Shown one piece after another: positions 26,485 through 53,017 of a stretch of DNA of 64,000 nt. The stretch lies in IMG/VR virus record IMGVR_UViG_3300025362_000006. The stretch is one strand, 5' to 3'. A program made the translations under genes and the position numbers. The notes under the pieces were generated by a model that worked only from the letters and a program-made list of their open reading frames with translations, was not told where the DNA came from and searched no databases. Positions within the stretch are counted from its first letter, which is position 1, and every line of letters starts with the position of its first letter. Origin of the DNA: an uncultured virus (IMG/VR IMGVR_UViG_3300025362_000006). Taxonomy: Duplodnaviria; Heunggongvirae; Uroviricota; Caudoviricetes.

Positions 26485-26805
26485 TATTGATTAGCGTCGT
26501 AACTTTGTGAATTGTCTGGAATACCCTTAGAGCTAATATAACAACAACGTGACTTGAAAAGGTGAGCGTGAGAACAGCACAAATGTCTGTTCGTGTTTAA
26601 AAATATATTAGATTGGGCAATCAGCAGCGAAGCTTTATTTAAAATATAAATAGAGAACGTTCAACGACTATCCCTACGGGGAGTACACTCAAGTGAGTGG
26701 AAGTACAAGGCATCGAAAGATGAAGATATAGTCTAATCTGTATAGAAATATACAGTGTATATAATAATACAAGATAGAATTAACGAATCTATCTTAATAC
26801 AAATG
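26485..26805 (+). ncRNA. group I intron (IA-like, no ORF) in terminase
   Basis: P1 GACGU/GCGUC with U.G; core AAUUGUCUGGAA, AAUCAGCAG, CAACGACUA, GAUAUAGUC; P7.1/P7.2; terminal G; removal restores frame. Confidence 0.9.
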
Positions 26806-27360
26806 GCACCAATTGAATACTTGCAACAGTTTGCGAATGCAGATAAATTAAATACAAAAGAATATATTTATTATAATGATTATCTTTATCGAGAAAAAGT
26901 TAAAGATGAAATGAAAGATAAATATGGCATACAAACCACGGGTTTGTCAAAACCATTGATGGTTGGTTGTCTCTTGCAATTTGTAAATGAAGACCCAAAA
27001 TGTATTAAGTCACAAGATTTGATTGATCAATTCTCTAGTATAGAAAAAACAAGTTCAGGGACAATTAAATCGACAGGTTATTCAGATTTATTCATGGCGG
27101 CTTGCTTCTGTGCCCTCGTAAGAAATAAAATGGCAATGGAAATTCTCCCATTAATAGAATCAAAATCATCAAAACTTCAAGGAACACAATTTGTTGATAA
27201 TTATACAAATGTCTTAGCAACGATTCATGGATCTAAATCACAAAAACAATCTGATTATTCAGATGAAGAAGTTGTATATAGCTCTTCAATTGAAGCTTTG
27301 TATGGACACGAAGATATGGAAGAATCTGAAACATCATTCATTCCATTCTTTTCAAGTTAA
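26806..27360 (+). CDS. terL: terminase large subunit, exon 2
   Basis: APIEYL...KYGIQTT...SDLFMA nuclease C-terminal motifs. Confidence 0.88.
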   Translation, partial: APIEYLQQFANADKLNTKEYIYYNDYLYREKVKDEMKDKYGIQTTGLSKPLMVGCLLQFVNEDPKCIKSQDLIDQFSSIEKTSSGTIKSTGYSDLFMAACFCALVRNKMAMEILPLIESKSSKLQGTQFVDNYTNVLATIHGSKSQKQSDYSDEEVVYSSSIEALYGHEDMEESETSFIPFFSS

Positions 27361-27523
27361 CAAAGATATTGTGTGACTAACTTTAAACAATCATAAAACA
27401 ATCGAAAATCCGCCGAGGCCAAAAATGCCGAAGCTTTGAAATCTGCTGAGGCCTCAAAAAATAAAAAGTGAGGATCTTTCTGGGGATATTATATTTATAT
27501 TTATATAGAGGAGTTTTAACTAT

Positions 27524-30500
27524 ATGTCAACAACAAATCAGAAAAAAAATCAATCTAATTCATACTTATTAAAAAATCAATTAGAAAAAGCAAATCTTAA
27601 TCAAAATACTCCAGAAAATCAAACAACAAACTTACAGTATTTAGAACAACGTCAACAAGAACAAGATAGAAGAAATCAAGAACAATTGCAATATGAACAG
27701 CAACAACAAAATGCACCAAATGTTCAAGATCAAGCAGATAGAATTCATTCACAATCTAAACAAGTTAAACGTGGAAAAGTTCTTAATGAATCTGATGCTA
27801 GAAAACGACAACTTAAAATGAATGAGTTATCTGCTTCTAAAGGTTACATGGCTGCGAGTATGGGTGCAAGTTATGTAAAGCAAGCAGGTAGAACAGCAGA
27901 AAACATGGGACTTGGATCTGTCGGAGGAGCATTATTAGGTTCCACTGGTGGATTTTATCAAGGTGGAATGAAGTCAATTTCAAATGCTGGTCGTGTAAAT
28001 AAACGAATGGAAATGGCAAAACATGCTAAAGAATTAGGAGCGACAGGAACAACTAAGAGAGCAACATCACTCATTAATGACACAATGCGTATGTCTTACT
28101 CTGCTAATCTTATGAAAGGACTTATGGGTGGACAGATTGCTCCTACAAGTTCTATGAAAGGTTCTATGGTTGGTGGAATTAATTCTATGTTTGGTGCTGG
28201 TGGTGGTGCCCCTGTTGCTATTGCCAGTGCTGCTGGTCCTGGAGCGGGTCAAGCTGGTATTGGTTCCGCTATTGCTGGTGCTGGAAATGCTGCTGCTACT
28301 GGTGCAGGGTCTATGATATCTCCAGGTATGGCGGCTACTGTTGGACTTGCTGCATTAAGTATGGGGAGTAGCATGGCAGCAAATAAAAAACTTCGTAAAT
28401 TAATGGTCACCAAGAAAACTCCAGGAGAGTTAGAAAGAAAATATGCAAAAGGATCTAATCTTGATAGTTTTTACAAATCACTAAGAGCACAAGAACAAAT
28501 TACTCCTCAACAACAACTTCAATATATTCTCCTCTCTTATATTGAAGGTCATACTAGTGTATTACCAGAATTACTCAGTTTAAATCAACAAACTTCAGAA
28601 GGAAAAGATAAAGCAGGAAAACAGTTAGATGGGAAATATACTAAACAAACAGGAATTTCAGACGACCCTGATGTACTAAAACATGATTCATTACTTACAA
28701 CTCTTGAAAATACACTTAATTTAATGATCACTAAGTATGATCCAATTTCACAGTTAACAAGTTTTATTTTAACTGGATCAACTCCTAAAAAGATTCTTGA
28801 AGATATTGAAAAAGGTAAAGGTTTAAGTAAGAAAGAGTTAAGTGAGAAAGATGATTCTGCACATCGACTAGGAATTTCAACAGATCAATTTAGACTACTT
28901 GGAATTAATTCAGCATCTCTTATTGCTGGTCTTCCATCATATGAAGTAAAAATGCTTGCACTTGCATCTGCATCATATGATATGAATAGATTAATTGCAC
29001 AAGAATCAGCAACTATTCGAAAACATGGTCTAGGAGTAGATCATAATTCATTCAATAGTCCAATTTCAAAAACAGGTTTGTTTGGTAAACTTGAAAATGT
29101 TGTTAATCTAATCCCAGGGTTGAGTGCTGGTTATAATGTTATTAAAGACACCTTATTACTTCCTAAAAAAGGTGCTGAATTTATGAAAGGGTTATTCAAA
29201 GGTGGAATGAACACAATCTTTGGAAAAGACTTTCTTAGACATAAAGATCAGAAAGAGTTAGATAAAGACTTGGGGTTTGATAAATCTGCTCAAGTTAAAG
29301 CTACTGAATACACTGCTGAAGGACTTCCTACTCATATGGAGAAAGTCCGAACACTTGCAGCACAGCAACTAGACATTCAATATAACATTTTTGATGTGTT
29401 GACAAAACAATATAATTTAACTCACGAACAAACGACTGGTAAAAAGTCTGAATATGGTTATACACAAAAGATGGATAACGATGTTCTTCAAGAGAGAACT
29501 TGGGATTCATTTGAACAAAAAATGCTGACTGGTGAAGGATTAGAAAAAGCTCTTGAAAAGCGCCAGGTGATGTATCAACTACAAAGAGATAAAGATTTTA
29601 AAAAATCTGGCATTAATAAACTTACTATGGCAGGGACACTAGGTTTAGCAGGTTTAGTTAATATTGATAGAAAACAAAGTCTTGTGGATAAAATAACACC
29701 AGGTTCTATTGACACAAAAAAAGAAAAAGAACAAAATATTCGTTCAACTATTAAAGATGATACTCATGTTAAAGAAGTTGATTTAGAGACTGAACGTAAA
29801 AGAGCTACTGCTGATGTTACTAAAGAAATAATGCTCCCATTAATGTCTGCAATGGGTCTCTTGACAGCAGTTGCAACAGGAGGTGTTTCAGCAATAGTTG
29901 CTGGTGGTGGAGCTACTGCTTTAGGTAGTGGTGTCGGTGGATTACTAGAAATAAATAATGAAAACCGACGAGATAAATTATTATCTGAGTTAGAAGAAAA
30001 AAATTTAGGAAGAGAAGCAATTGAAGGGAGAGGAATAACTTCAATAGATGACGAAACAAAAAAGAGAAGTAATTTAGCAAATAAAACAACGAGTGCCAGT
30101 AGTATGGGTTTAAGTAGCCCGACATTAACTTCAATAATCGACAAAGACAAAATTGTCCCAGATAAAATTCAAGTTCTTCATGAAATGATTGATGATAGAT
30201 TTGGTGAAGTTGTAGATTTATTTATTTCGCCTATTCAAGTTGAAAATTTAAGTATATTGTCGAGATTGACAGCGATAAAAGATAGACTCACATCTCCAAT
30301 TGGTGTCGATATAAAAAGTTTCACTTCTAGTCTTGTTCGACCAATTAAGAAAGGGTTTGATCGGGTCGTCTCTAAATTAAATTCTAAATTGAAAGTCGAT
30401 GTTAAATCGAATGTTTTCGGTGATTATAAATTAAAGATTCCAAAAGATTCTTCTAGTATTCTTCCAGGTTCTGGTGCTGCTGATAGTTATGCTGAAATCA

Positions 30501-33500
30501 AAGCTGCTGCAGGTGGTGGAGTGTTAGTTGGTGAAAATGGACCAGAGTACATAAAAGATAATAAATATGTTTACAATGCAGACCAAGCAAAATCTAAACT
30601 TGGATTGGATCTTCATAGTTTAGCATCTGACCCAAATGTACGTAAACTAGCTGGTGGAGGAACACTTCCATCTGCTGACGATCTAAAATCTGCCGAGGCC
30701 AAACCAGAAAATAATGTAGTAAGTATTGCCTCAAAAATGAAGGAAGATAAAGAAGAAAAGAAATACACAGAAGAACAAAAAATTCAAAATAAAATACTTT
30801 CGAATAGTGATGAAACTTATAAATTATTAACAGACATTGAAAAAAATACTAGAAAGAAAAATGAAAAGAAAAAAGATGGTATATTTTCAAAAGTACTTGC
30901 TGGATTAGCTGCATTACTTAGTGGCGGTGGTTTAGCTGCATTACTCACTGGAGGAGCGGCATTAGCAGCATTTTTTGGTACAGGGGGTAAGGTAGGAACA
31001 AAAGCAGTCGCCGGTATCGCTGGAAGGATGATGACAAAGATTCTTGCTGGTATTGGAAAAATATTTAAAAAATCAGGACCAGAATTATTAGAAACTATAT
31101 TTGAAAAGATTGGTAAAAACTTTACTAAAATGTGGCCAACCGCACTTAAAGCGTTAGGTGTAGGTAAAGGTTTCTTCACAGATTTAATCACTCACAGTTG
31201 GTCTTTTGTCAAATCAGGTATTAAAAAATTAATGCCTGATATGTTTGATAATATTGGTGCAAAATTAGCTGGTCTTGGTGGTAAAGCAGCTAAAATATTT
31301 AAAAAACTACCAGGGTCAACAGGCATCTTTAAAAAATTAGGTTCTGGATTACTAGAGAAAATAGGTCTTAAAGGTGTTGCTAAGATGGGAATGAAAGGTG
31401 CTGGAAAATTAATCAGTAAACTTATTCCAGGACTAGGGCTTCTTGTTGGTGGTTATTTTGCGGTTCAACGAGCATTAAAAGGTGAATGGCTTGAAGCAGC
31501 AGTTGAATTAGGGTCTGGTATAGCATCATTAGTTCCTGGATTCGGTACAGCACTTAGTCTTTCAGCTGATGTTTGGTTAGCTTTTCGAGATAGTAAAAAA
31601 GAAACTGTTGTTGATGGTGGTCCTGGCTCAAGGACTGGAGCAAAAAAAGAAAAAGTAGATGGACCAGGTCTGCTCAATAAAATGGGAACATTTATTACTG
31701 AAGGTTTTGCTAAAGTTGGAAACTGGATACTTGATAAAGTTTATGCCACACCATTTATTGGTGGATTTATTGAATCTTTTGTGACTGGTGTTAAGAATAC
31801 ATTCTTTGATGTTGTTGACACAGTAAAAGATGCTACGGTTGAAGATGGAAAACTTAAACCTGATTGGTTAGGTAGTCTTGCTACCACTATATGGGATGGA
31901 TTTGGAGAGTTTAAAGATAAAATATTTGAAGGAATTTATAAACTACCAATCATCGGTGGTGCAATTAAGTCTCTTATTACTGGTGTAGATAATGTAATGT
32001 TTGCAACTACTGAATTTGCTAAAGATATTGGAAAATCGGTAGACGGTGGACAGTTTAAACCTGGTTGGATGTCTCGACTGTGGACAACTGTGTCTGAAGG
32101 TTTTGGTAAAGTTAAAACTGTTATACTTGGAGAAATATATAAATTACCAGTCATCGGAGGGGTAATTAAGTCTTTAGTAACTGGTACAGAAAATGTGATG
32201 TTTGCAACTACTGAACTAGTGAAAGGTATTGGAAGTGCTGTCGATGATGGACAATTCAAACCTGGTTGGCCTGGTAGACTGTGGACAACTGTAAAAGAAG
32301 GTTTTGGTAATGTTAAAGATGCTATATTTGACGGTATATATAAACTACCGTTCATAGGTAGTTTTATAGAATCTTCTGTAACTGGTGTTAAAAATACTTT
32401 TTTTGCAACTCAAGACTTTGTTAACGAAACTAATGAAAAAATATCTAATTTTAGTATTTCGGATACTTTTCACAGCATTAAAGATTCATTAGTCACTAAA
32501 TCATCTGATTTTTTTGGTAAAATTCCTTTTATTGGGTCATATTTAAAAGATCGTATCCTTGGTAAAGAAACTAATATTCAAGAAACTCTAACAAATATTA
32601 AAACTGAAGTTAACAATAAAGCTAAAAACTTTAGTGTATCTGATACTTTTACAAATATTAAAGAAAAATATATTGAATTTGCTGCAACTATGTTTAACTC
32701 TGTCCCAATTATTGGTTCGTTCATAAAGAACTTTATTATGGGTAAAGACACAAATTTACAAGAAGAGTTAAAATTAGCTAATATTGATGCTAAAGACACA
32801 GCTAAAAGCTTTAGTATTACTAATACTTTTACAAATATTAAAGAAAAGTATATCGAGATTTATACTACATTATTTAAATCAATTCCAATTATTGGTTCAT
32901 TTATATCGAATTTTCTTATTGGAAAAGAAACTAATGTTCAAGAAGAGTTAAAATTAGCTAATATTGATGCTAAAGACACAGCTAAAAATTTTAGTATTTC
33001 GGATACTTTTCACAGCATTAAACTATTAGTAATAGAAAAAGCTGCTGGGTTTTTTGGTAAAATCCCACTTATTGGATCATGGTTAAGTAATGGTATGTTG
33101 GGTCTTGATCCTAGTTTTAAAAATGAACTCGACCAAATTAAATTAGATCAAGTAAAACAATCTCCTCAATTTAAATTAGCAGATATTTTAAATGATATGA
33201 TATCTGGTATACGAAAAGCTGCTGCTATTAAAGCTTCTTCGATTCCATTAGTTGGTGCTGTTATCGCCAACAAACTTTATCCAGAAGGTGATTTTGATGA
33301 AGATACTGAGATTGTTGATGGTAAGATAGTAAGTGAACCTAAGAGTCTTTCTAAGATTGCTCCTAAAAATATTCTTAAGAAATTAGAGAATCGAGGAGTT
33401 GTTGATATAAATAATATGATCCTAGGAGACAGATCAACAATTGCTGATAATCAATGGGATACTATTTCTGAATTATCTACACCACAACTTCAATCTGTTA

Positions 33501-36500
33501 TTGATTATGATGATTGGAGTAAAACAACTAAAGATAGATTATTAGAAATTCAAAAATCTAAAGAAACTACACGGTCTAATGTTGTGACCGCACCGAAAAC
33601 TGAAAAAGAAGTTTTACCTGTTAAGACTAAACAAATACCTGTGTCTGTTCCAAGAGGACCTGGTGCTATGTCATTACCAGAAGTTAATCACCCAGTTATT
33701 TCTAACCCAGTATCTACAAAAAAAGTTTTACAGACTAAATCAGTACCTGGACCACCGGATCGTTCGTTTGCAAGAGGTGGTATACTACCAGAGGGATTAA
33801 GTCTTATTGGTGAAGGTTCTTCTGGAAAAATAAGTGAACATGCTGAAGCAGCATTTACAGGAGTTAACCCAAGATCAGGTAAAGAAAAAACAACTATATT
33901 CCCTGCTGAATTGACAAGTAGAATGGGTATAACTAATGAAAATATGTCCAGCATTTTTGGAGATACTTCAAACATTCATGATAATTATGAATTTATTTCT
34001 GACATAGCGGAACTTGCAGGTACTGGAGTTAACTATATTGGAAAATCAAAATCAGTTGCGAAAGAGTTAAGTTCAAAAATAGTTAATATGTTTTCTAAAC
34101 GTGGTCTTAAGATGTTTGGGAAAAAAGTACCTGGTTTGGGAGCATTAATAGGTATTTATTCTGCATATGAAAAGTTTCAAGAAGGAGATAATGTTGGAGC
34201 AATGATGGAGATTGCTTCTGGATTAACTTCTTTTCTTCCAATCATTGGTACTGCGGCTGGTACCGCTATTGATATTGCTTCGATGGTAAGAGAAAGTAAA
34301 CGGGCTTCAAACGAAGCTGAAATTACTTCTGGTGGGGCTATTCCTGCATTTGAAAAAGGTGGTAAACTAAAACCTGGATTAAATATTGTTGGTGAAAAAG
34401 GTCCTGAAGCAGCATATGTAGACCCAAAGAAAAAAGATGTTCAAATTTACAATGCAGGACAAGCACAATCTAAATTTGGAATTGATGTTAATGATTCGAA
34501 TCCAAGTGTTGCTAAATTTGCTGATGGTCAAGAATCGAATAATCGACATAATAATTTATCAACTAATTTCAATTCATTATTAGATATTCGTTCAAAATTA
34601 GAACAATCAAAAACTGAATTGTCTGATATGGAAATTGAATTTCCTTCTAAACAAGTTGAACGAAGTGATGATTGGAGTCGTTGGACAGAGACAGTTTTTG
34701 ATGATCCAAAAATAGATAAACGATATGATAAACTAAGGGGTTCAATTCACGATTATAATAAAAGTTATAAAATAAAATTGAATAGATTATTTAAATTAGA
34801 TCCGAATCCTCCAAAAAGTTATAGTGAATTGTCTGGATATAGTTTATATCCAAATGAGATGAAAATATTCGATGAACAATTTGGAAAATTTGATCTATTT
34901 AATAATCAACAACAACAATGGTTCAAAACTACTTTATTTGACCTCCGTAAACAAAGGTTTTCTGAATTAGTAAAAAATGAAGAAACTCAACTTCCAACAC
35001 TAGATGAATCTGGGGTAGTTTCAGCTCCAAAAACTCAAGAAGAAGTTCAATCTGTCCCACAATCAAGGGCAGGAGCTAGAAAACGACTAATAGATAAACG
35101 AAAAGCAGCATTAATGAAATTAATGCCTAAGTCTACTCTTAAACCTGGAGAATCTGGAACAAGTTCATTTGAAGGCACTGTTTATAAACAACCTGGTCAG
35201 ACTGATTTTGATATGACAAAGGTTCAACCAGATACTACTATTTCTTCTAAACCAACTTGGACTTCTTCTAGAGGTATACCTGATCTTTCCTTTCTCCATG
35301 ATGAAAGTTCAACTAATTATGACTCTTCTGTTATTGGAAATTCTATGCATCCTACTCAACCTAATGCTCCTGGAGCATATGACACAGTAAAAGATGTAGC
35401 AGGTAAAGGATTTGATACTGCTAAGATACTTGGTACATCAGCTTATGATAAAGCAAAAGATTTAGGAAGTAAGGCAAAAGATTCTATCGTTGCTAATGCT
35501 CCTGGAGCATATGACACAGTAAAAGATGTAGCAGGTAAAGGATTTGATACTGCTAAGATACTTGGTACATCAGCTTATGATAAAGCAAAAGATTTAGGAA
35601 GTAAGGCAAAAGATTCTATCGTTGCTAATGCTCCTGGAGCATATGACACAGTAAAAGATGTAGCAGGTAAAGGATTTGATACTGCTAAGATACTTGGTAC
35701 ATCAGCTTATGATAAAGCAAAAGGACTAATTTCTGGAGACGATTCTACTTCATCTGAAATTCCTGTCATTGGAAACGCTATGCATCCTACTCAACCTAAT
35801 GCTGTCGGTCATGCAATGCATCCTACTCAACCTAAGAAATTTAAAGGTAAATTTGATGCAATGTCATTTGCTGGATCGTTTGCTTCTCAACTTACTGGAT
35901 TACTTGGTAGAGCAGGTAAAATGGCAGCTAAATTTGCTATTGGTGGTGTGCTTGGTGAAGACACATATGATAAAGTTGCTTCTGTGCTTTCTGGAGACGA
36001 TAAGAAACCAATTAAACCAGATACTGATAATTTAGATAGCCCTATTTGGGATGTAGTAAAGAATCATACTATGGCAAGTGAAGGAATTGTTCTTCATAAA
36101 TATAAAGATCATTTAGGTTATGACACTATTGGTGTTGGGCATTTAATTAAGAAAGGTGAACGATTTCCAGATAAGATTAGTTCAGGTGAAGCAAGAACAA
36201 TATTCAATAAGGACTTTAGAGAGCATAAAATGATGACTTCTCGAATGCCTGGATTTGATAAATTAGATGATGTACATCAAGGTGCAATAGTTGATATGGG
36301 ATTTAATTTAGGATTTGGTTCTGAAGCGAAAGGAACTGGTCTTATGGGATTTAAAAATACTCGTAAAAAACTAGTGTCTGGTGATTTTGCTGGAGCTGCT
36401 GGAGGTATACGTGATAGTAAATATCATAAACAAGTCCCAAATAGAGCTGAACGTATTGCTAAAGTTGTTGAAACTAGTGATCCAAGCTATTTCAATTCAG

Positions 36501-37114
36501 ACAAACCTCAAATCATTGCAAGACATGGGGCATTTACTGGCAAAGGTATTTCTGAGATGCTCAGTTCAAAGAAAACTATGCTTGCTGACAAAGCTAATCA
36601 AATGTTCAGTAATGTGTCCTCTAAAATAGAGGATGGGGCAAGAGGATTAGGTTTCACAGGTAAAGGTACTGCACCTATTTCTGCAACACTTCATCCAAAT
36701 GAATTTGTGTTTGGTAAAGGACAATTTGAAGGTTTGATGAGTAAGATTGTTGATGATACTAATGCTCAAATAGGTAAAAATCTTGATTTAAAACGAATGG
36801 ATATCTCAAATATTTTATCCAAAGCTAAAGAATTTGAGAAAGTTCAAAATGAAAATATTAAAGAGACTGCAAAGAAAGAAACTGATATACAAACTAAAGC
36901 AGCTAATCCTGCTCCACCAGTTATTGTAAATAATAACAACAATACCCAGGCAGCTCCACCACAGAATAATAGACAAGAAGCAGAAGGACAGTTTACAGAA
37001 ATTGATAATTCATTAGATAAAATGGTTTATAATTTATTTAATGCTTCTACAAACTCATTAATAACATTTATTAATGATTCTGTTTTTTCAAATAATGCTT
37101 CATTTGATTTTTAA
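27524..37114 (+). CDS. tape measure-like protein with C-terminal T4-type lysozyme (GH24) domain
   Basis: 3196 aa; Gly/Ala-rich hydrophobic and periodic helical repeats; EGIVLHKYKDHLGYDTIGVGHLI and SKYHKQVPNRA lysozyme motifs. Confidence 0.85.
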   Translation: MSTTNQKKNQSNSYLLKNQLEKANLNQNTPENQTTNLQYLEQRQQEQDRRNQEQLQYEQQQQNAPNVQDQADRIHSQSKQVKRGKVLNESDARKRQLKMNELSASKGYMAASMGASYVKQAGRTAENMGLGSVGGALLGSTGGFYQGGMKSISNAGRVNKRMEMAKHAKELGATGTTKRATSLINDTMRMSYSANLMKGLMGGQIAPTSSMKGSMVGGINSMFGAGGGAPVAIASAAGPGAGQAGIGSAIAGAGNAAATGAGSMISPGMAATVGLAALSMGSSMAANKKLRKLMVTKKTPGELERKYAKGSNLDSFYKSLRAQEQITPQQQLQYILLSYIEGHTSVLPELLSLNQQTSEGKDKAGKQLDGKYTKQTGISDDPDVLKHDSLLTTLENTLNLMITKYDPISQLTSFILTGSTPKKILEDIEKGKGLSKKELSEKDDSAHRLGISTDQFRLLGINSASLIAGLPSYEVKMLALASASYDMNRLIAQESATIRKHGLGVDHNSFNSPISKTGLFGKLENVVNLIPGLSAGYNVIKDTLLLPKKGAEFMKGLFKGGMNTIFGKDFLRHKDQKELDKDLGFDKSAQVKATEYTAEGLPTHMEKVRTLAAQQLDIQYNIFDVLTKQYNLTHEQTTGKKSEYGYTQKMDNDVLQERTWDSFEQKMLTGEGLEKALEKRQVMYQLQRDKDFKKSGINKLTMAGTLGLAGLVNIDRKQSLVDKITPGSIDTKKEKEQNIRSTIKDDTHVKEVDLETERKRATADVTKEIMLPLMSAMGLLTAVATGGVSAIVAGGGATALGSGVGGLLEINNENRRDKLLSELEEKNLGREAIEGRGITSIDDETKKRSNLANKTTSASSMGLSSPTLTSIIDKDKIVPDKIQVLHEMIDDRFGEVVDLFISPIQVENLSILSRLTAIKDRLTSPIGVDIKSFTSSLVRPIKKGFDRVVSKLNSKLKVDVKSNVFGDYKLKIPKDSSSILPGSGAADSYAEIKAAAGGGVLVGENGPEYIKDNKYVYNADQAKSKLGLDLHSLASDPNVRKLAGGGTLPSADDLKSAEAKPENNVVSIASKMKEDKEEKKYTEEQKIQNKILSNSDETYKLLTDIEKNTRKKNEKKKDGIFSKVLAGLAALLSGGGLAALLTGGAALAAFFGTGGKVGTKAVAGIAGRMMTKILAGIGKIFKKSGPELLETIFEKIGKNFTKMWPTALKALGVGKGFFTDLITHSWSFVKSGIKKLMPDMFDNIGAKLAGLGGKAAKIFKKLPGSTGIFKKLGSGLLEKIGLKGVAKMGMKGAGKLISKLIPGLGLLVGGYFAVQRALKGEWLEAAVELGSGIASLVPGFGTALSLSADVWLAFRDSKKETVVDGGPGSRTGAKKEKVDGPGLLNKMGTFITEGFAKVGNWILDKVYATPFIGGFIESFVTGVKNTFFDVVDTVKDATVEDGKLKPDWLGSLATTIWDGFGEFKDKIFEGIYKLPIIGGAIKSLITGVDNVMFATTEFAKDIGKSVDGGQFKPGWMSRLWTTVSEGFGKVKTVILGEIYKLPVIGGVIKSLVTGTENVMFATTELVKGIGSAVDDGQFKPGWPGRLWTTVKEGFGNVKDAIFDGIYKLPFIGSFIESSVTGVKNTFFATQDFVNETNEKISNFSISDTFHSIKDSLVTKSSDFFGKIPFIGSYLKDRILGKETNIQETLTNIKTEVNNKAKNFSVSDTFTNIKEKYIEFAATMFNSVPIIGSFIKNFIMGKDTNLQEELKLANIDAKDTAKSFSITNTFTNIKEKYIEIYTTLFKSIPIIGSFISNFLIGKETNVQEELKLANIDAKDTAKNFSISDTFHSIKLLVIEKAAGFFGKIPLIGSWLSNGMLGLDPSFKNELDQIKLDQVKQSPQFKLADILNDMISGIRKAAAIKASSIPLVGAVIANKLYPEGDFDEDTEIVDGKIVSEPKSLSKIAPKNILKKLENRGVVDINNMILGDRSTIADNQWDTISELSTPQLQSVIDYDDWSKTTKDRLLEIQKSKETTRSNVVTAPKTEKEVLPVKTKQIPVSVPRGPGAMSLPEVNHPVISNPVSTKKVLQTKSVPGPPDRSFARGGILPEGLSLIGEGSSGKISEHAEAAFTGVNPRSGKEKTTIFPAELTSRMGITNENMSSIFGDTSNIHDNYEFISDIAELAGTGVNYIGKSKSVAKELSSKIVNMFSKRGLKMFGKKVPGLGALIGIYSAYEKFQEGDNVGAMMEIASGLTSFLPIIGTAAGTAIDIASMVRESKRASNEAEITSGGAIPAFEKGGKLKPGLNIVGEKGPEAAYVDPKKKDVQIYNAGQAQSKFGIDVNDSNPSVAKFADGQESNNRHNNLSTNFNSLLDIRSKLEQSKTELSDMEIEFPSKQVERSDDWSRWTETVFDDPKIDKRYDKLRGSIHDYNKSYKIKLNRLFKLDPNPPKSYSELSGYSLYPNEMKIFDEQFGKFDLFNNQQQQWFKTTLFDLRKQRFSELVKNEETQLPTLDESGVVSAPKTQEEVQSVPQSRAGARKRLIDKRKAALMKLMPKSTLKPGESGTSSFEGTVYKQPGQTDFDMTKVQPDTTISSKPTWTSSRGIPDLSFLHDESSTNYDSSVIGNSMHPTQPNAPGAYDTVKDVAGKGFDTAKILGTSAYDKAKDLGSKAKDSIVANAPGAYDTVKDVAGKGFDTAKILGTSAYDKAKDLGSKAKDSIVANAPGAYDTVKDVAGKGFDTAKILGTSAYDKAKGLISGDDSTSSEIPVIGNAMHPTQPNAVGHAMHPTQPKKFKGKFDAMSFAGSFASQLTGLLGRAGKMAAKFAIGGVLGEDTYDKVASVLSGDDKKPIKPDTDNLDSPIWDVVKNHTMASEGIVLHKYKDHLGYDTIGVGHLIKKGERFPDKISSGEARTIFNKDFREHKMMTSRMPGFDKLDDVHQGAIVDMGFNLGFGSEAKGTGLMGFKNTRKKLVSGDFAGAAGGIRDSKYHKQVPNRAERIAKVVETSDPSYFNSDKPQIIARHGAFTGKGISEMLSSKKTMLADKANQMFSNVSSKIEDGARGLGFTGKGTAPISATLHPNEFVFGKGQFEGLMSKIVDDTNAQIGKNLDLKRMDISNILSKAKEFEKVQNENIKETAKKETDIQTKAANPAPPVIVNNNNNTQAAPPQNNRQEAEGQFTEIDNSLDKMVYNLFNASTNSLITFINDSVFSNNASFDF
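35363..35723 (+). repeat. 132-bp coding tandem repeat x~2.7 (44 aa, 11-residue periodicity)
   Basis: Identical units at 35363, 35495, 35627. Confidence 0.92.
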
Positions 37115-42211: not shown

Positions 42212-42461
42212 ATATTTACTATACACTATACTAGATTCTAACTAAATCAAGTATAGTGTATAGTACCCTTTATATTTTTATCATTTTCATCTAACAATTA
42301 ACTATCAACTCTTTAACTTTCAATTAAAAAAAAATCAACAACTTATTTTTTGAACACGGGGAAAGGTTATCTAAAAATTGTATTTTTTGTATCTAAAACA
42401 CATAAATTAACAGGTGTTCACGTTCACTAATTTTTTATTTTTTATTTAAGGAGTGCTTAAA

Positions 42462-42674: not shown

Positions 42675-43047
42675 TATTAGTATTTGGCATATTGAATTTT
42701 TATTATTAATTGTTTTATTGATCGGGTTTTTTCGTAGTTTTATGCAAAGAATTTGTTCTGATGAATATACGACATTAAACCATTTATTGACTGCATCTGT
42801 GTCGATTTATAAAGTTAATATTTATGTACCGAAACTTAATAAATTACACAACACTTATGATTTAGATGAAAACTCACAGACGAATGCTAGTAAATTGTTT
42901 AATGAAAATTCAACTAAACTATTAAACGAAAGTTGTAATGATATCATTAAACATTATTTAAATAGCCAAATACTAACTAAGTTGTATAAGTACTATTCAG
43001 AAGCTGGTATTATTATAACTATACTTTCTATTTTACAAGAGGATTGA
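42649..43047 (+). CDS. hypothetical membrane protein
   Basis: N-terminal hydrophobic helix FLLLIVLLIGFF. Confidence 0.6.
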   Translation: MTELLILSNISIWHIEFLLLIVLLIGFFRSFMQRICSDEYTTLNHLLTASVSIYKVNIYVPKLNKLHNTYDLDENSQTNASKLFNENSTKLLNESCNDIIKHYLNSQILTKLYKYYSEAGIIITILSILQED

Positions 43048-43051
43048 TATT

Positions 43052-45211: not shown

Positions 45212-45711
45212 ATTTATCAATGCATGATTTGTATCTCGGTGTTGATGATAGTGTTGAAGCAGGTTTGGTTTGTGCTATTGCTGAGGCTACTGATCCTGAT
45301 CCTGATCCTGATGATGATAACGGTGTTGGCATAGGTACTGCTGATGCTGAAGACATTCCTGACGAAGCGGAAGGAGTGGCTCCAGAATCTGATGCGGACG
45401 ATGGTGCAGATACTGGCAAAGGTACTCAAGCTAATGCAGCAGCGACTGATCGTGTTGAGGAGGAAAGAAAACTTTCTGAAAATCCCGAGCTTGAATCTTT
45501 GAAGAAGTTTTTGTTGATTCAAAAATTGCAAGATTTGAATACTAATTTGATGAAACATAATATTTTGAATGATAGTCTATCGACTTTCTTAGAATTTTGT
45601 GGAACACTGAGTTATGATACTATCGTGTCAATTAGTGCAGGGTTTACTGATTATATTATACAGAATTTAGGTACACTTAATAAGGAAACTTCTGCTATTG
45701 ATGTTAAGTAG
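45205..45711 (+). CDS. acidic prohead core/scaffold-like protein
   Basis: Very acidic low-complexity N-half; position between portal and protease. Confidence 0.5.
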   Translation: MVNLSMHDLYLGVDDSVEAGLVCAIAEATDPDPDPDDDNGVGIGTADAEDIPDEAEGVAPESDADDGADTGKGTQANAAATDRVEEERKLSENPELESLKKFLLIQKLQDLNTNLMKHNILNDSLSTFLEFCGTLSYDTIVSISAGFTDYIIQNLGTLNKETSAIDVK

Positions 45712-45806
45712 ATAGTTTAAATTATATTTTTTCTTTATTATACTTGTTTTTTGATTTCTTTATGGTTTTTGATTTAAAGACATTATTATTATTTTTTGAT
45801 TTTTAT

Positions 45807-45881
45807 ATGGGAGGAGAGATTAATTACCTCGTTGGGTTGCTATCACAACCTTCCTCCCATTCTTTAACCTTGATAGAGGAG
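45807..45881 (+). promoter_or_regulatory. structured leader with RBS-pairing pseudoknot (copy 1)
   Basis: Stem ATGGGAGGA/TCCTCCCAT; hairpin loop CTATCA complementary to TGATAG at 45871-45876 abutting SD. Confidence 0.7.
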
Positions 45882-45889
45882 ATTTTATT

Positions 45890-47075
45890 ATGACCGATTT
45901 TGATTGTGTTGATATTATTAATGTTCCAACAACTAAATCTTGTTCTTGTATTGATTGTGTACAAATTAATCCACAACAATTATGTAATTTCACTAAAAAC
46001 CCAAATAGCAAAGATGGTAAAGAATCTTTTTGTAAATTTTGTATAAGTCGAAGACGTACAGAAAAAAGGGTCCTTCAAAAATTTTTTGCTATAATGAAAA
46101 CTACGCATATAGATCAATTTAAAACAACAGTAGCTTGTGTTTATATTTCACAAACTCACACATGTAATTTGAAAAGTAAACGATTGTTGAATAATTTTAA
46201 ATTGACAGAACAAGAATTAATTGAAATATTAAAAGATGAACAGGTATTTCAATATAAAATATGTATAAGTTGTCAACAACTAAAACCTTTTGACGAATAT
46301 TATAAAATGAGTAAAAACTCTCTACAATCAATTTGTATTCTATGTCAACAAGATTTATATAAAAAATAGTGAAAGCATTAAAACTAATTCTAAGGTATAT
46401 AGAAATGGCCCAGGTAAATATGATACGTATGCTAAACAATTGTTTGCAGACGATTGTAGACGATCGAAACATGATCCATCAGTTTTAGAATTAAAATGCA
46501 CATATTGTGGTCGTTATTATTCGCCATCCATTAATCAAATTTCGAATAGAATACGATCGACTGCTGATAATGCTAAATATGTAGACATTAGATTATATTG
46601 TTCAACTAATTGTAAACAATCGTGTCCAATGTTTAGTAGAACAGTAGACCAACTAATAAATGTAGATGCAAAAATAAATTCTGAAACCAGTATTCCATTG
46701 AATCGAGAGATTCAAGCTCAGTTACGTCAAATGGTTCTTGCTCGGGATAACTACACTTGTCAAAAGTGTGGTAAACATCAGGATAACTTAGATGTGGGGC
46801 TTCATGCACATCGTATCGAAGGTATTCGTCATAACCCCATCGAATCTGCAGATATTGATATGGTTATCACAGTCTGTGTTAATTGTCATAAAGAGATCCA
46901 CAGACAACCTGGGTGTACTAGACAAGATATGATGTGTAATTTAGAAGATTATGATGAAGATACAATGAACAAAATCAAAAAAAATAAAGAAATCAAAAAA
47001 CAAGATATTGATAAAGTTGAAGATATTGAAATAAATATATCTAATGAAATGTTAGAAGATATTTTATTTTATTAG
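45890..47075 (+). pseudogene. free-standing HNH homing endonuclease, frameshifted (ORFs 45890..46369 and 46440..47075)
   Basis: CxxC zinc modules, RDNYTCQKCG...CVNCHKEIH; frames join at A6 run 46361-46366; HHI motif reads HRI. Confidence 0.8.
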
Positions 47076-47094
47076 ATTAACATAGGAGACACCA

Positions 47095-47339
47095 ATGGCT
47101 AGTAAAGCGAAAAAGTTTGGCTTTATATTTGAGCAAACGGTGGTCGTCCCGAATAGTAAGCTTGAGATTCTTGAAGAATCTTTGACTGACGATAAGCGAC
47201 CAAGGGTACATTTCAGATCTCTTTTACAAGAATCTGGAGTAAAGAATCAAAATAATAGAATTTATGGTCAGCCGGTTTGTGAAAGTATAGTTGCACAACT
47301 TGCTCCTAAAGCAAAAGCAAGAAATTTGTTAATGGAAGT
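47095..47339 (+). CDS. prohead protease (T4 gp21-like), exon 1 (join 47095..47339,47701..48232; 258 aa)
   Basis: LQESGVKNQNNRIY motif; splicing restores MEV|DHP catalytic His motif. Confidence 0.9.
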
Positions 47340-47700
47340 AAAATGATCTGCTTCCCATATTCAGTGATGAGTATGAAAAAAATCTCGTGAACTGTCTGGG
47401 ATATCCTTAGAGCTAATATAACTACAACGTGACTTGAAAAGGTGAGCGTGAGAACAAATATTTGTTCGTGTTTGAAAATATATTAGATTGGACAATCAGC
47501 AGCGAAGCTCCTGTAAAATGGAGAACGTTCAACGACTATCCCGAAAGGGAGTACACTTCAAGTGAAGTGGAAGTGCGAGACAACTTATTTTTTTATTTTC
47601 AGTAAGTTGAAGATATAGTCTAATCTTATAAGAAATTATGAGCAAGAAGAATTTAACTTCTTCTTAGATAGAATTAACGATTCTGTCTGAATGGATGATG
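47340..47700 (+). ncRNA. group I intron (IA-like, no ORF) in prohead protease
   Basis: P1 GGAAGU/GCUUCC, 7-bp P10 AUGAUCU/AGAUCAU, P/Q/R/S core, terminal G 47700. Confidence 0.93.
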
Positions 47701-48232
47701 AGATCATCCTCTATTTGGAATCAGTGATCCAAATCAATTAAAACGTCGAGCAGGAATCGTAGAGATTCGCAATTGTGGGGCGTACATCAAGGACATCTCC
47801 TATAAAGGTAATCAAGTGATTGGAGAAATTCAAACTCTGTCTGGTTTTCAAGGACCTAGTTTAGCTAACCTTATTCTCCGAGACAAAGTCAATATAGGTT
47901 TTTCATTACGAGCTTTAGGATCTGTTGAACCACTCACTGATGGGACATTAGATGTCAAGATGCCACTTCGTGCGATTACATATGATATCGTGAGTTCGCC
48001 GTCGCATGATAATGCTCGCATCACGGAGTTCCTACCAGAGTCATTCATATGTGAATCCGCAGATGAATCTGGAATTTTAGCAGAAGCAGCAGATTTATCA
48101 TTACTTGAGCAGCAAGATAATATTGTTATTGATAATGTAAATGGAAATCATTATATTCAGGCTTTTACAGATGATTTGATTCATGAGACTTTCTTAAATA
48201 TTATTAATAAAGGTCTACGATTTAAACTTTAA
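47701..48232 (+). CDS. prohead protease, exon 2
   Basis: DHP...IGFSLRALGS...TYDIVSSPSH motifs of S77/gp21-type proteases. Confidence 0.9.
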
Positions 48233-48298
48233 TTAATACTCCTCTAAGTCTAACACTTAGAGATTCAATATAACTATTTCTAGAGGAAGAGGTTTACA

Positions 48299-49171
48299 AT
48301 GGAATTAATATTTGAAAATTACGAAAACTTCATTACGGAAAATAAAGACGAGCTCAATTCTCCAAGAGATGCATATCGGCTTTTGCACGATGATGCGATG
48401 TTCAGGAGCTATAAAGACAGTTTGCTCGAAGGTATTGATGAAGCTGTGCGTCCGAGTATTATGGGTGTTTTGGATCGCCAAAGAGAAATGCTGCTTTCTG
48501 AGGCAGCGAACGTGGGGAGTAGCTCATTCGCAGCTGGGTGGACTGTGATGTCGTTTCCGATTTTGGTCGACATATATGCAGAGCCATTAATATCAGAAAT
48601 TTGTACTTCCTACCCAATTTCTAAGTCAGTAATCTCCATCCCCCGTATGAGGGTAAAAGCCACAACTACGTCTTATGATGGGACTACAGAAACATCACGT
48701 TACATTCCTACTGCAACTGAACTCGTCAGAGCAAATGAAGAAGTAGTAACAGTAACTCCTGGAACAAATTATAACATCTATACTGGATTGGGTTTCACTA
48801 TTGCAACTCATAAAATGAATAGACGTTATAATATTATGTATTCTACTGCTATCACTGAGACTAAAACTGGTGGTGGTACTGAAGATCATACTGTTGTTCT
48901 TAATTATCGTCCTGATAACCGTAATCAGATTGCCCAGACCTTTACATTCACTAGTTCTGATAGTGAGACTGTCACTGGTAATGTAATGGCTCATGTAAAT
49001 AATGATGCTGGTACAGTATCTGTTCAAATTACATTTGATATTGGTGATTCTACTTCTACTTTTGAAGCAGATACAGCTACATTTAAACTGCGTTTTCGTC
49101 CTGTTGGATCTAATCACGGACGAACTAAAGTTAGTGTGACTACTGAAATGATAGATTGTACCGTGGACCCT
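48299..49171 (+). CDS. major capsid protein, exon 1 (join 48299..49171,49571..49615,49996..50052,51353..51813,53018..53147; 521 aa)
   Basis: Follows protease; acidic prodomain ending LLSE|AAN; spliced product has a gp23-like EDIQDFNSIFKIDV...QIALNKD helix. Confidence 0.88.
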
Positions 49172-49570
49172 AAGACTTGTTGGGGCTTATGTTAGTAATG
49201 ACATTCGAAGAACTTCTTTAACTGTCTGGAAACTCCTTAGAGCCAAATAACTACAACGTAACTTGAAAAGGTAAGCGTGAGTCACTTTTGTGTGACGGAT
49301 TGTATAGTTAAAAAATATTTGGATTGGACAATCAGCAGCGAAGTCTCTAATTAAAAATTCGCAATTTTTATATGAGAAACGTCCAACGACCATCCCGCGA
49401 GGGAGTACACTTCAAGTGAAGTGGAAATAGGAAGGTTCCTATATTTTCAATGTTACACATAGGAACGTGATATGGTCTGTTCTTCATAGAGATATGGAGC
49501 AAAAATATTTTTATTTATTCAACTAAAATTATTTTTGTTTATGATTTAACGCATCGTAAATAATATCAAG
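49172..49570 (+). ncRNA. group I intron 1 of MCP (no ORF)
   Basis: P1 CCCU/GGGG, core AACUGUCUGGAA, AAUCAGCAG, CAACGACCA / GAUAUGGUC (covarying P7), terminal G. Confidence 0.9.
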
Positions 49571-49615
49571 AACGAAGATTTCCTTCTCGAGCTAGAGACT
49601 GAAGATATTCAGGAT
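49571..49615 (+). CDS. MCP exon 2 (45 nt, NEDFLLELETEDIQD)
   Basis: Between terminal G of intron 1 and P1 (GGAU/GUCC) of intron 2; in frame. Confidence 0.82.
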
Positions 49616-49995
49616 ACCCAGTTGGTTCTCTATTAAAAATCAACTAAGTCCCTTGTATCAGTAATGATATTCGAAAAACTCTCTTAATTGCTGGAACGTC
49701 CTTAGAGCTAATATAACTACAACGTAACTTGAAAAGGTAAGCGTAAAGTTCATTTATGAACTATGTTTGAAAATATATTAGATTGGAAAATCAGCAGCGA
49801 AGCTCCTGTAAAATGGAGAACGTTCAACGACTATCCAGGAATGGAGTAGGATTCAAGCGAATCCGAAATAGAAAGTACCCAATTATCATCTATTGGGTAA
49901 TGATATAGTCTAGACTATATAGAAATATATAGTAGTTTATATGACGATTTTACATATAAACAGGAATAGGTTCGCGACTTATTTCGAATATTTCG
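49616..49995 (+). ncRNA. group I intron 2 of MCP (no ORF)
   Basis: Extended P1, AAUUGCUGGAA, AAUCAGCAG, CAACGACUA, GAUAUAGUC, P9 with GAAA loop. Confidence 0.9.
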
Positions 49996-50052
49996 TTCAA
50001 CAGCATTTTTAAAATCGACGTACTAAGAACGATTACAGAAGCAATTAAGCGT
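49996..50052 (+). CDS. MCP exon 3 (57 nt, FNSIFKIDVLRTITEAIKR)
   Basis: In frame between introns 2 and 3. Confidence 0.82.
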
Positions 50053-50310
50053 TAACCTTAGCGCCGTATGGCAGTAATGTCATATGAAAATTTCGTGAAT
50101 TGTCTGGGATACCCTTAGAGCTAATATAACTACAACGTGACTTGAAAAGGTGAGCGTGAATGTTTGAAAATATATTAGATTGGGCAATCAGCAGCGAAGT
50201 CTCTAAGTAAAATTTGTTATTTTATATGAGGAACGTTCAACGACTATCCCGCAAGGGAGTAGAATTCAAGTGAATTCGAAGTACGAAACAACCCATTGTA
50301 GTGATTACTT

Positions 50311-50410
50311 ATATGGGGAAACAGATTGGGATTTATGTACTCTAATTAAGTACCCCAATTGACTTAGGTGCCGATACACTTGAGTCTCCCCGCCCATATC
50401 TTATCGGAGG
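50311..50410 (+). promoter_or_regulatory. structured leader with RBS-pairing pseudoknot (copy 2)
   Basis: Stem ATATGGG/CCCATAT; hairpin loop CCGATA complementary to TATCGG 50402-50407 overlapping SD GGAGG. Confidence 0.72.
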
Positions 50411-50417
50411 TCAACTA

Positions 50418-51215
50418 ATGAAAGTATGAACATGTGCAGGATGTAAGAAAAGCGAACCTGAAGTAGAATTTTATGCAGCGGGAAGACATTGTAAAAAATG
50501 CAGGTCTGTTAATAATGTGAGAAAATATTACACCGAACAGATTGGTCAATTTGAATTAATTGGTATTCAAGAATTACACAAATTTCAACGATCTTTTTTG
50601 TATAATTCTATCCACAAAAGAAAACGGTCTTTAGAATTCTGTTCCCAAGTAATGGGATATCCAATTGACAAATTAGAATCTGCATTAAATTCAATTGGGT
50701 ATTATGAGGATAATCATGGTTGGTGTTCCAAGTGTGCTATACTAAAACCGTTAAGTGAATTTAGTATATCTACTACTCTAAAGTGTGGACATCACTATTG
50801 GTGTAAAGAATGTGATAACGCCGGTACAAAACAATATAAATTAGATAACCATGAAAAACATCTGGAATATTGCAAAACTCATTATCATAAAAACAAAGAA
50901 CAATGTGCAGCATATGGTAAACAATATAGAAAAGATAACCCCGACAAAATAGCACAATACGGTTTAAAACAACGCACTAATTATAAACAAGCAACGGCTT
51001 GTTGGGCAGATTTGGATAAACTCAAACAAATTTATTTGGAACGGGACAGATTAACTGAAGAAACGGGCATACGACACAATGTTGATCACGTAATTCCCTT
51101 AAATGGGAAGAATGTGTGTGGTCTACACGTAGAGACCAATCTCCAAATCTTAACTGAAACAGAAAACAAATCAAAAAGTAACAAATTTGAACCAATTATC
51201 GAATCGTTCAAATAG
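50418..51215 (+). pseudogene. intron-encoded HNH endonuclease with TGA at codon 4 (open part 50517..51215)
   Basis: SD GGAGG + ATG 50418 in frame; CxxC modules; HNVDHVIPL...GLHVETNLQIL...N HNH motif. Confidence 0.8.
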
Positions 51216-51352
51216 TCAAAACAAAAAATCATATCATATATTATCATGGGTTGATAATATAGTCTGGTCTGTGTAGAAATATACAGCCGTTGTTCAAGTC
51301 CAATCTTTACTTGAACACGGAATAAGAGTAACGATCTTATTTGAACATAACG

Positions 51353-51813
51353 CAAATCGCCTTGAATAAAGATTACGATTTGGTATATTTTTTAGCGGCG
51401 AGCGAGACCTCCATGGCAGATTATGGAGCCCGTTTCACGGTTGATCTTGACAACTTCAAGGGGGATAGTAATTATAAGCCGTCTACCCCGATCGATGTAT
51501 TCAAGGCAATTATTCCTCACATCTCCACATTAATGGGAGTGATCCGCAAAAATTATCAAATGTATCCGTCATACCTAGTCGCTGGGATTAAAACCGCATC
51601 TATGCTTCGATCACTCCAGGAAATGATGGTTAGTCTTCCTGGTGATCGTGGTGGAATGGGTTTCGGTGGAACAACTGCTCAGTTCTTGAAATTGAAAATT
51701 CTTGAATCTGTATCAGCTGACGAAAATAAGATTTATCTTACAACGAAAGCTCCTGCAAATGCTCTTGAGAAAGCGTCAATCATTGATCTCATCTATCAAC
51801 CTCTCTACATCGT
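51353..51813 (+). CDS. MCP exon 4
   Basis: QIALNKDYDL...LIYQPLYIV; YQPLY resembles the gp23 YxPY motif. Confidence 0.88.
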
Positions 51814-52061
51814 TAACTAATAGCGACCTTATGCAGTAATGTATATTGAATAACCTTGTGAATTCATGGGAAGCCTAACTCTGAAAAGATATGGTAATCA
51901 TGAGCCAAGCTTTAATGAGACCACTAATTTCATTATTGAAGGTGCAACGACTATCGAAACCACATCTAGTAAATTAGATGGAAGGGAGTAGAGTACACAA
52001 CGAGTGTTGTGGAAGCGCAAGGTATCCGAAAAGAAAAAACCAGAAACAATTTTTTAAAAGT

Positions 52062-52142
52062 TTCTGGGGGGACAACGGTTGATCGCCGGATAATTACCTA
52101 TTTAATTATCTTACCCTCAGAATCTATCATATCTAATAGGAG
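52062..52142 (+). promoter_or_regulatory. structured leader with RBS-pairing pseudoknot (copy 3)
   Basis: Stem TTCTGGGGG/CCCTCAGAA; hairpin loop CCTATT complementary to AATAGG 52135-52140 overlapping SD AGGAG. Confidence 0.72.
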
Positions 52143-52150
52143 AAAATATA

Positions 52151-52901
52151 ATGTTAAACAAAAAACCAGTAAAAACAACAAAAATCTGTTCGCGAAAAAC
52201 ATGTAGATGCCCATATAAAGGTATGCCCCAGCCAATTGAAAACTTCACCAAACAATCATCATCAAAAGATGGTTATTATCCAGCTTGTAAAGCTTGCGTT
52301 GCAGCATACGAAGAATCAAAAGGAATACATAAATACCGTAAAGATTTCACAAAAAAATGGAAACAAGAATTAGCTAAATTCGATATCTCTGCAGACAATA
52401 TTTCTTATTGTGAACAAGTAAGAAGAGATCCTGACAATTCTGAATTACTTCAAGTGCAATGTTCATTGTGTAAAAATTGGATGAATCCAAAAAATGGTCA
52501 AGTCCATAATCGAACAAGTGCATTAGATGGTAAAAAAGCTGGAGAATCAAAGTTCTATTGTAGTGAAGAATGTAAAAAACAGTGTCAGACTTATCGAAGA
52601 CAAACACATCGTAAATCTGAAGCTAAAAATTATAGTCCTATGAATAGAGATGCTACGGTTCAATATCTATCATCTGCGTAATATGGCATTAGAAAGAGAT
52701 AATTATACTTGTCAAAAATGTGGGTCAACAGAAAATTTGATCTGTCATCATATCGAGTCAATAAATGAAAATCCAATAGAAAGTGCAGATCTTGATAATG
52801 TTGTAATGTTATGTACAATATGTCATGAAGAAATTCATTCACGTGTCGGTTGTCGTCGACAAGATTTGACATGCGAAAATATAAAAATTAACATAGGTTA
52901 G
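52151..52901 (+). pseudogene. intron-encoded HNH endonuclease, frameshifted by TATC duplication
   Basis: ORFs 52151..52681 and 52650..52901; removing one TATC (52664-52671) gives VQYHLRNMALERDNYTCQKCG...CHHIE...CTICHEEIH. Confidence 0.85.
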
Positions 52902-53017
52902 TGGCCTAGTACCAACTTCGGATAATGATATAGTCTTGTCTGTATAGAAATATGCAGCAGTAGTGTATAATCAATTACCCTACGAATAGAGTCTAACGAA
53001 TTCTATTGAAAATTACG

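Follow-up and report, generated by a model that had tools for sequence, protein, structure and literature searches.

Dense colonisation of core and structural genes by group I introns has already been published for two groups of large phages. In the passage cited here, a crAss-like phage of the Zeta group has its major capsid protein (MCP) gene in five fragments, with group I intron-type domains in three of the four intervening segments, and up to 14 introns are found per Zeta genome, MCP being among the core genes interrupted (Yutin et al. 2021, PMC7886860). The Jug (jumbo gut) phages, gut phages associated with Bacteroides, are described in the cited section as carrying a mean of 18.5 group I introns per genome, with a mean length of ~206 nt and with the gene for the terminase large subunit (terL) in two or three fragments; RNA reads back 37 of 76 of the introns (PMC12880540). 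Here we analyse a 64,000-nucleotide stretch of the uncultured Caudoviricetes record IMGVR_UViG_3300025362_000006 (hereafter, the window), in which six predicted introns interrupt terL, the prohead protease gene and the major capsid gene. With a probability of roughly 0.6, we read them as six self-splicing introns, five of which belong to a widespread mobile subfamily, acquired by mixed colonisation rather than in a recent burst within this genome.

The window resembles the crAss-like Zeta genomes in having a capsid gene interrupted four times, but the phage order and capsid family are different and the Zeta phages come from the gut. The crAss-like introns, according to the passage cited, were found through their endonuclease domains, whereas those of the window were found as ribozymes, four of the six lacking an open reading frame (ORF) and the exons being as short as 45 and 57 nt. 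With the Jug phages, as far as the cited section describes them, the window shares numerous introns and a split terL; those phages differ in their gut hosts and shorter introns, and the present case is known from sequence alone. For Escherichia phage rV5, the relevant passage describes terL in three segments, one insert having a homing endonuclease, and the same passage cites a terL group I intron of Lactobacillus phage LL-H (PMC3606486). The interrupted terL is again the likeness; the terminases are of other families, and that passage contains no introns in protease or capsid genes. In PhiPA3, the excerpted account has gp210 as an HNH endonuclease in a group I intron of an essential jumbo-phage gene, which cuts the homologous site of a co-infecting relative (PMC11620839). 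There the target is the virion RNA polymerase gene and the activity was established by experiment, whereas both ORFs here look imperfect; cutting of the PhiPA3 kind is a possible role for the ORFs of capsid introns c and d. An earlier sequence-only reading of the window had treated introns in head genes as unusual, a premise that is out of date given the crAss-like, Jug and rV5/LL-H cases. The locus is an unusually dense, further example of a pattern known in other large phages, and the picture of phage introns is unchanged by it.

Several related, ORF-less introns of phage type in a single gene are also said to exist in Staphylococcus phage Twort, whose orf142 reportedly contains three group I introns; the account, from Landthaler and Shub in 1999, names exon skipping in its title. 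The window differs in that four introns share one gene, two of them have endonuclease ORFs, and the host gene is a capsid gene by homology. Exon skipping is relevant here because capsid micro-exons 2 and 3 are in phase, with lengths that are multiples of 3. The nearest sequenced phages are Staphylococcus jumbo phages, ten records of which match capsid exon 1 at 25–35% identity. In the deposited annotation of one Staphylococcus jumbo phage, Madawaska (MW349129), the protease coding sequence (CDS) is assembled from three pieces and terL is given as two CDS that flank a homing endonuclease; the capsid gene, unlike that of the window, is annotated as one CDS. A megablast search of 46000–54000 against phages returned 18 records, with only short intron-core matches covering ≤3% of the query and no close sequenced relative.

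The Rfam covariance model for group I introns (RF00028, gathering score 50 bits) was run on the whole window. With default filters, five matches reached or exceeded the gathering score (53.6–85 bits), while the match in the last capsid intron, d, needed laxer filters. Two weaker matches, 51185–51286 and 52787–52957, represent the 3′ portions of c and d, the two introns with ORFs; no further match at E ≤ 0.1 was found in the 64 kb. All exons and introns of the three genes lie on the plus strand. Exon 1 of terL (25033–26484) comprises 484 codons ending in ENNTIGR and matches phrog_2 of the PHROGs collection (E = 9.7e-27); the tblastn match of homologue P0046 stops at 26484. It is followed by a 321-nt intron without an ORF (26485–26805; RF00028 match 26475–26755, 85 bits) and by exon 2 (26806–27360), which begins with APIEY and is matched in tblastn by P0046 residues 444–634. 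The prohead protease gene starts with exon 1 (47095–47339), which ends in LLME plus the gt of a V codon (phrog_207; tblastn with P0169 and P0171–P0173). Its 361-nt intron (47340–47700; RF00028 match 47330–47642, 82.4 bits) is also free of ORFs, and exon 2 (47701–48232) supplies the a and continues with DHPLFG (phrog_3014/207; homologues with Pfam PF03420/PF20034).

The major capsid gene is divided into five exons. Exon 1 (48299–49171; 291 codons; phrog_20655 and tblastn tiling) is followed by intron a (49172–49570), of 399 nt and without an ORF (RF00028 match 49162–49499, 60.2 bits). Micro-exon 2 (49571–49615), 45 nt or 15 codons long, corresponds in tblastn to homologue residues 293–307. Intron b (49616–49995; 380 nt, without an ORF) has its RF00028 match at 49636–49932 (69.9 bits), beginning 20 nt too far inside because of a long P1 loop. 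Micro-exon 3 (49996–50052; 57 nt, 19 codons) covers residues 308–326 (E = 2.9e-4 with P0001). Intron c (50053–51352) is 1300 nt long, its RF00028 match being divided into a 5′ part (50043–50337, 53.6 bits) and a 3′ part (51185–51286, 23.2 bits). Exon 4 (51353–51813) corresponds to residues 327–483, at 55–62% identity. Intron d (51814–53017), of 1204 nt, is likewise matched in two parts (51804–52089, 52.0 bits, and 52787–52957, 31.2 bits), and exon 5 (53018–53147), with 127 coding nucleotides plus the stop, corresponds to residues 484–521 at 63–76% identity.

Uninterrupted homologues, when aligned by tblastn, tile the exons of all three genes with neither gap nor overlap. The capsid homologues (n = 43, from a protein search) have 516–535 aa, those of terL ~600–650 aa (for example, P0046 at 64% identity) and those of the protease ~250–261 aa, with Pfam PF03420/PF20034. 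By PHROGs, the flanking frames are terminase large subunit, head maturation protease and major head protein; Pfam was uninformative on the protease and capsid exons of the window, and PHROGs together with the precomputed Pfam matches of the homologues were used. In all six introns, a T stands immediately before the intron and a G is its last base. Removal of the introns gives stop-free frames of 668 aa (terL), 258 aa (protease) and 521 aa (capsid), with joints reading ENNTIGR/APIEY in terL and LLMEV/DHP in the protease, whose V codon is divided gt/a (a slash marks the splice site throughout). Read through without splicing, every 5′ splice site is followed by an in-frame stop within 0–8 codons. 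We conclude that the six elements are almost certainly real group I introns, one in terL, one in the prohead protease gene and four in the major capsid gene. As judged from these frames, six splicing events must take place for heads to be assembled, unless further copies of the genes lie outside the window. Inteins were ruled out, the inserts being ribozyme matches and out of frame, and optional splicing around a spare exon was rejected because of the in-frame stops close behind every 5′ splice site.

Mis-joins over repeated intron sequence could in principle have produced an apparent fragmentation of these genes. One short contig of a relative (L028, described below) looks chimeric, and many joints among contigs on this region are induced by repeats. 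However, all exons of the three genes stand in the correct order and frame, five sequencing runs contain 98% of the words of the stretch, and independent contigs of relatives repeat the layouts: intron a, exon 2 and intron b in L040, terL in L059, and exon 1 and intron a in L090. An assembly artefact is thus very improbable.

The sequence-only reading had put six introns at the coordinates given above, and its structural description has stood up well: RF00028 finds all six, tblastn borders agree, and each of the three head genes is indeed truncated unless spliced. It had also held that the P1 guides differ yet match their own exons, and this is what we find. Read off the sequence, the P1 pairings span 4–7 bp. 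In terL, exon GACGU/UA faces guide UAGCGUC; in capsid intron c, GCGU/UA faces UAGCGC; and in capsid intron d, UCGU/UA faces UAGCGA, so that CGT/TA with TAGCG recurs at these three sites, as the reading had noted. The protease exon GGAAGU is matched by GCUUCC, that of capsid intron a (CCCU) by GGGG, and that of capsid intron b (GGAU) by GUCC. Phage-type introns of subgroup IA2, such as those of T4 td and Twort, have the extra helices P7.1 and P7.2 between P3′ and P7. Compared with the Rfam consensus, two hairpins are inserted at the P7.1/P7.2 place; the P7.1 pairs covary, and the P7.2 arms vary complementarily between copies. The introns appear to be of phage type with P7.1 and P7.2, and IA2-like. 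Across 36 family members, in an alignment made with MAFFT rather than fitted to structure, compensatory changes affect both sides in 23 of 33 predicted pairs, P3, P5, P6 and P7.1 being covered.

A 20-mer, ACAACGTRACTTGAAAAGGT, occurs five times in the window, against 0.04 copies expected, and none of 100 shuffles attains five. The terL, protease and capsid a, b and c introns have in common a P5 extension (...CCTTAGAGCTAATATAACTACAACGTRACTTGAAAAGGTRAGCGT...AAAATATATTAGATTGG), and their alignment contains the segment quoted by the sequence-only reading. Intron d has no P5 extension and is missed by a profile of the other five, its core being distinct, as had been claimed; its nearest 5′ core is that of a tail-sheath intron in another viral contig (L004). 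The same reading had taken the near-identical segment as a sign of intragenomic spread, a claim that the wider family does not support. We sampled the family through the exact 18-mer ACTTGAAAAGGTRAGCGT, which occurs in 19 loci of viral contigs and in 74 metagenome stretches, three of the latter being the contig of the window itself. An intron was detected over the motif by Rfam in 10 of the 19 viral loci and by the profile of the five in 17 of 19, and none of these 19 loci contains relatives of the terL, protease or capsid protein of the window.

The host genes are diverse, comprising tail sheath (L004, L010), capsid proteins of other families (L002, L008/L020, L017), other terminases (L013, L015), tape measure (L035), RNA polymerase beta (L019, L071), DNA polymerase (L005, L006, L030, L089), primase (L012), a UvsX-like recombinase (L081), RNR (L085, L074) and a Dda-like helicase (L057). 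In the alignment of 36 members, the bases beside the 18-mer are also nearly invariant. The near-identical segment is thus a conserved structural hallmark of a widespread subfamily and not a sign of recent copying: it hardly varies among subfamily members in the genes of other phages and gives no evidence of recent spread.

These data bear on the alternative of a single founder intron that has recently multiplied in this genome and redirected its guide to every new site in a head gene. Five copies with a long common motif, at 5 against 0.04 expected, and guide classes common to several sites would fit such a burst, but the motif is a family hallmark in other phages. Moreover, the five copies are pairwise only 63–80% identical and the longest exact run common to any pair is 48 nt, yet the exons of relatives that differ in intron content are 95–97% identical. 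Variable modules are shared in a reticulate manner among the copies: P6 ties the protease intron with b, and a with c; P5b and the 3′ tail tie terL with the protease; and P7.2 ties the protease with a. Within the lineage, the best inter-site pairs reach 85–89% identity, and orthologues at one and the same site lie between 79% and 93%.

A maximum-likelihood (ML) tree was built from 49 sequences and 221 columns, drawn from 58 matches after leaving out those that did not cover profile positions 50–200, the contig of the window itself (L054, L078, L079) and nine exact duplicates. In this tree the window introns form no clade. The lineage introns are split between two groups, one of terL, protease and c and the other of a and b; other introns are interspersed between and inside these groups, at low support. 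The lineage introns lie apart from those of phages shown to be different, such as L002, L004, L008, L015, L017 and L035, in favour of a founder burst. A clade of the five window introns alone is rejected (p-AU = 0.0007), which is in part trivial, since the relatives' orthologues intervene; the ML tree lacks a clade of all 16 lineage introns, but such a clade is not rejected (p-AU = 0.18). The earlier claim of an intron family that spread within the genome is upheld in part: the elements are group I introns, five are of one family, and relatives differ in which sites are filled, but spread that is both recent and intragenomic does not accord with copies 63–80% identical. With the terL, protease and capsid a/b sites filled in relatives down to ~35–50% protein identity, we consider a recent founder burst quite unlikely.

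Nine of 44 loci have genes in common with the window and are relatives of this phage (L028, L029, L040, L055, L059, L075, L083, L086 and L090). Sites of the window are also filled at terL-C in L059, at capsid a and b around exon 2 in L040, and at intron a behind exon 1 in L090. Four further sites, all on the plus strand, are empty in the window and filled in relatives. The first lies between 13216 and 13217 in a UvsX-like recombinase gene (12667–14205, phrog_97), with a family intron in L029 and L086; L029 is 97% identical over 12043–14619 of the window save for the insert of ~360 nt, and the insert in L086 carries a LAGLIDADG-type ORF. Two sites lie in terL exon 1: one at ~25782/3, filled in L055 (95% identical exons) and L075, and one at ~25866, filled in L075; both are supported by breaks in blastn and tblastx and by the junction sequences. 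The fourth, in capsid exon 1 at VMS/F (48554/48555), is filled in L083, with an HNH ORF, and in L090; the junction reads GUCGU/UA...AAGCGAC, and the flanks in L083 have 100% aa identity by tblastx. In total, the lineage has at least ten sites, one in the UvsX-like gene, three in terL, one in the protease gene and five in the capsid gene.

In the short metagenome contig L028 (1–1167), the last part of a UvsX-like exon is followed by a family intron and then by terL exon sequence from window position 25866 onward. Mis-assembly over the intron repeat probably created this chimera, a warning for all short contigs of this family, and L028 was dropped as support for the terL site near 25866, which rests on L075.

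The intron-less alleles sought by the sequence-only reading also exist. A search of viral contigs with the protease alignment gave nine IMG/VR relatives, in which the protease gene is uninterrupted in 9/9 and the capsid gene in 7/9; capsid exon 1 alone, used as a query in viral contigs, gave no related loci. In run X13, one DNA contig connects 51810 with 53019 across just 4 letters and represents an allele without intron d. Two other joints, 51807–53067 and 47316–47805, are kept with reserve, the letters between their ends not being known, and most other contig joints in the four DNA runs were set aside as repeat effects that run between different introns. Two IMG/VR relatives have capsid-gene inserts elsewhere. 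In L095 (5008–5911), two capsid-gene introns behind ...GWTV have a diverged P5 extension. In L097 (5753–7072), a 1.3-kb insert in the capsid gene at about residue 311 contains a family intron by profile, below the Rfam gathering score.

ORFs of more distant relatives begin or end at intron sites. Among terL ORFs of <500 aa, 6 of 7 end at ENNTIG; many protease ORFs begin at (D)HP; and capsid ORFs end at the a site, at the b site (P0261 ends in ...DIQD) or at GWTVMS, the latter including several of ~85 aa. In this phage group, gene callers split the capsid gene as well as terL and the protease gene; exons of 45 and 57 nt escape any ORF finder, and fragments of this sort make up many of the short database entries for these families. 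Being filled in relatives at 35–92% protein identity, the terL, protease and capsid a/b sites are old.

Old sites are what would be expected if each site harboured its own resident intron lineage, maintained through homing, with no new site colonised in this lineage; likeness between sites would then stem from an ancient common origin, functional constraint or gene conversion. The wide occupancy of the terL-C, protease and capsid sites agrees with such site-bound residents, as does the patchy, reticulate sharing of modules, which is typical of conversion. However, four sites differ between relatives that are near-identical in their exons, some same-site orthologues are less alike than inter-site pairs, and guide classes recur at unrelated sites beyond chance. 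We therefore regard exclusively site-bound residence as unlikely, and colonisation of new sites in this lineage as likely. A mixture of old sites, polymorphic sites, new sites compatible with existing guides, and recombination fits the data better than a recent intragenomic burst. An example of exchange may be seen in L040 (1223–1491), where the orthologue of intron b (49616–49995) has a P5b hairpin and P6 of the intron a type and is 89% identical to intron a of the window but 82% to intron b; this mosaic points either to recombination between neighbouring introns or to a chimeric contig.

Insertion at conserved motifs, asserted by the sequence-only reading, is borne out: all 35 aligned proteases have D-H-P, and conservation over eight residues around the six joints lies at the 88th, 93rd, 93rd, 79th, 96th and 83rd percentiles within their own proteins. 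The guides fall into recurrent classes. The class CGU/AGCG serves four sites (terL-C, capsid VMS/F in L083, capsid c and capsid d), and GGAU/GUCC is that of capsid b and of the terL site near 25782. Given a T at position −1, CGT precedes 3.0% of exon positions, whereas it precedes 3 of 6 window sites (P ~5e-4) and 4 of 10 lineage sites (P ~1e-4). This sharing is consistent with insertion or survival being confined to places where a guide already present can pair, and does not identify the route of movement. A bolder and rather doubtful idea is that the lineage preserves a live record, in nature, of ORF-less group I introns whose transposition is limited by their guides. A copy may then enter a new site if an existing guide fits the three to six bases at the exon end, for instance through reverse splicing into a late mRNA and subsequent recombination, which would explain the four CGU/AGCG and two GGAU/GUCC sites. 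At least ten sites, occupancy that varies among relatives near-identical in their exons, common guide classes and swapped helices make the lineage suitable as a natural system in which to study how group I introns without ORFs arrive at new sites.

In our reading, late pre-mRNAs would have to be spliced, after the guide has paired with the last exon bases. The 5′ cut would be set by a U·G wobble and the 3′ cut by the terminal G, and ligation would restore the 668-, 258- and 521-aa frames; failing this, each of the three proteins would be truncated. Five introns belong to the mobile subfamily marked by the P5 extension, the sixth being a mosaic relative. They would most likely have arrived by two routes, one being homing or vertical descent at long-occupied sites and the other the occasional colonisation of a new site where the exon ends in bases that a guide already present can pair with, and resident copies would afterwards exchange helices through recombination. 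The route of movement and the order of events are what we infer from these patterns.

Several points weigh against this reading. Among 24 sequencing runs listed for the region none is of RNA, and splicing of the six introns is itself something we infer. The family was sampled through an exact 18-mer, which biases the sample towards close relatives. Given a tree of 221 columns with weak support, in which a clade of all 16 lineage introns is not rejected, a radiation confined to this lineage is possible. Several 'foreign' introns nested among those of the lineage (L005, L006, L019, L057, L071, L074) have host genes outside the content of the window and could sit in unseen parts of related genomes. 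Short contigs can be chimeric, so some mosaic signals, such as that of L040 intron b, could be artefacts. Finally, present homing ability is uncertain because both endonuclease ORFs, in introns c and d, look imperfect.

These ORFs are confined to two of the six introns, and both coding regions sit between the P8 arms, that is, in the P8 loop as read off the sequence. The ORF of intron c (50517–51215) matches phrog_1035 'endonuclease VII' (E = 7.7e-22). Immediately 5′ of its first start codon, at 50430–50516, an in-frame CxxC...CxxC stretch begins right behind a stop. Intron d has its coding region (52151–52901) split into an ORF at 52151–52681 and a second from 52650 or 52684 to 52901, which is an HNH ORF (Pfam PF01844, E = 1.5e-7). 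As a further part of the doubtful idea above, the endonuclease-bearing capsid introns may double as weapons against the head genes of co-infecting relatives. Within the HNH ORF, ~35 nt at 52688–52723 have a word depth of 68–307 in metagenome contigs of three runs, against ~2–30 alongside, and dozens of loose contig ends flank them on both sides; the peak is probably a motif common to many HNH genes of those communities.

Two adjacent, free-standing HNH/endonuclease VII-like ORFs (45890–46369 and 46440–47075, plus strand) lie just 5′ of the protease gene, with matches to phrog_1035 (E = 1.2e-6) and phrog_119 (E = 5.9e-10). They might act in trans, cutting for the ORF-less introns close by. Elsewhere in the window, a 448-aa ORF (4820–6166, minus strand) matches the HNH endonuclease family phrog_1314 (E = 3.2e-39), an ORF at 15815–16843 (plus strand) matches phrog_1706 'CRISPR/Cas system associated' (E = 1.8e-12), and a 3196-aa ORF (27524–37114, plus strand) stands immediately 3′ of terL.

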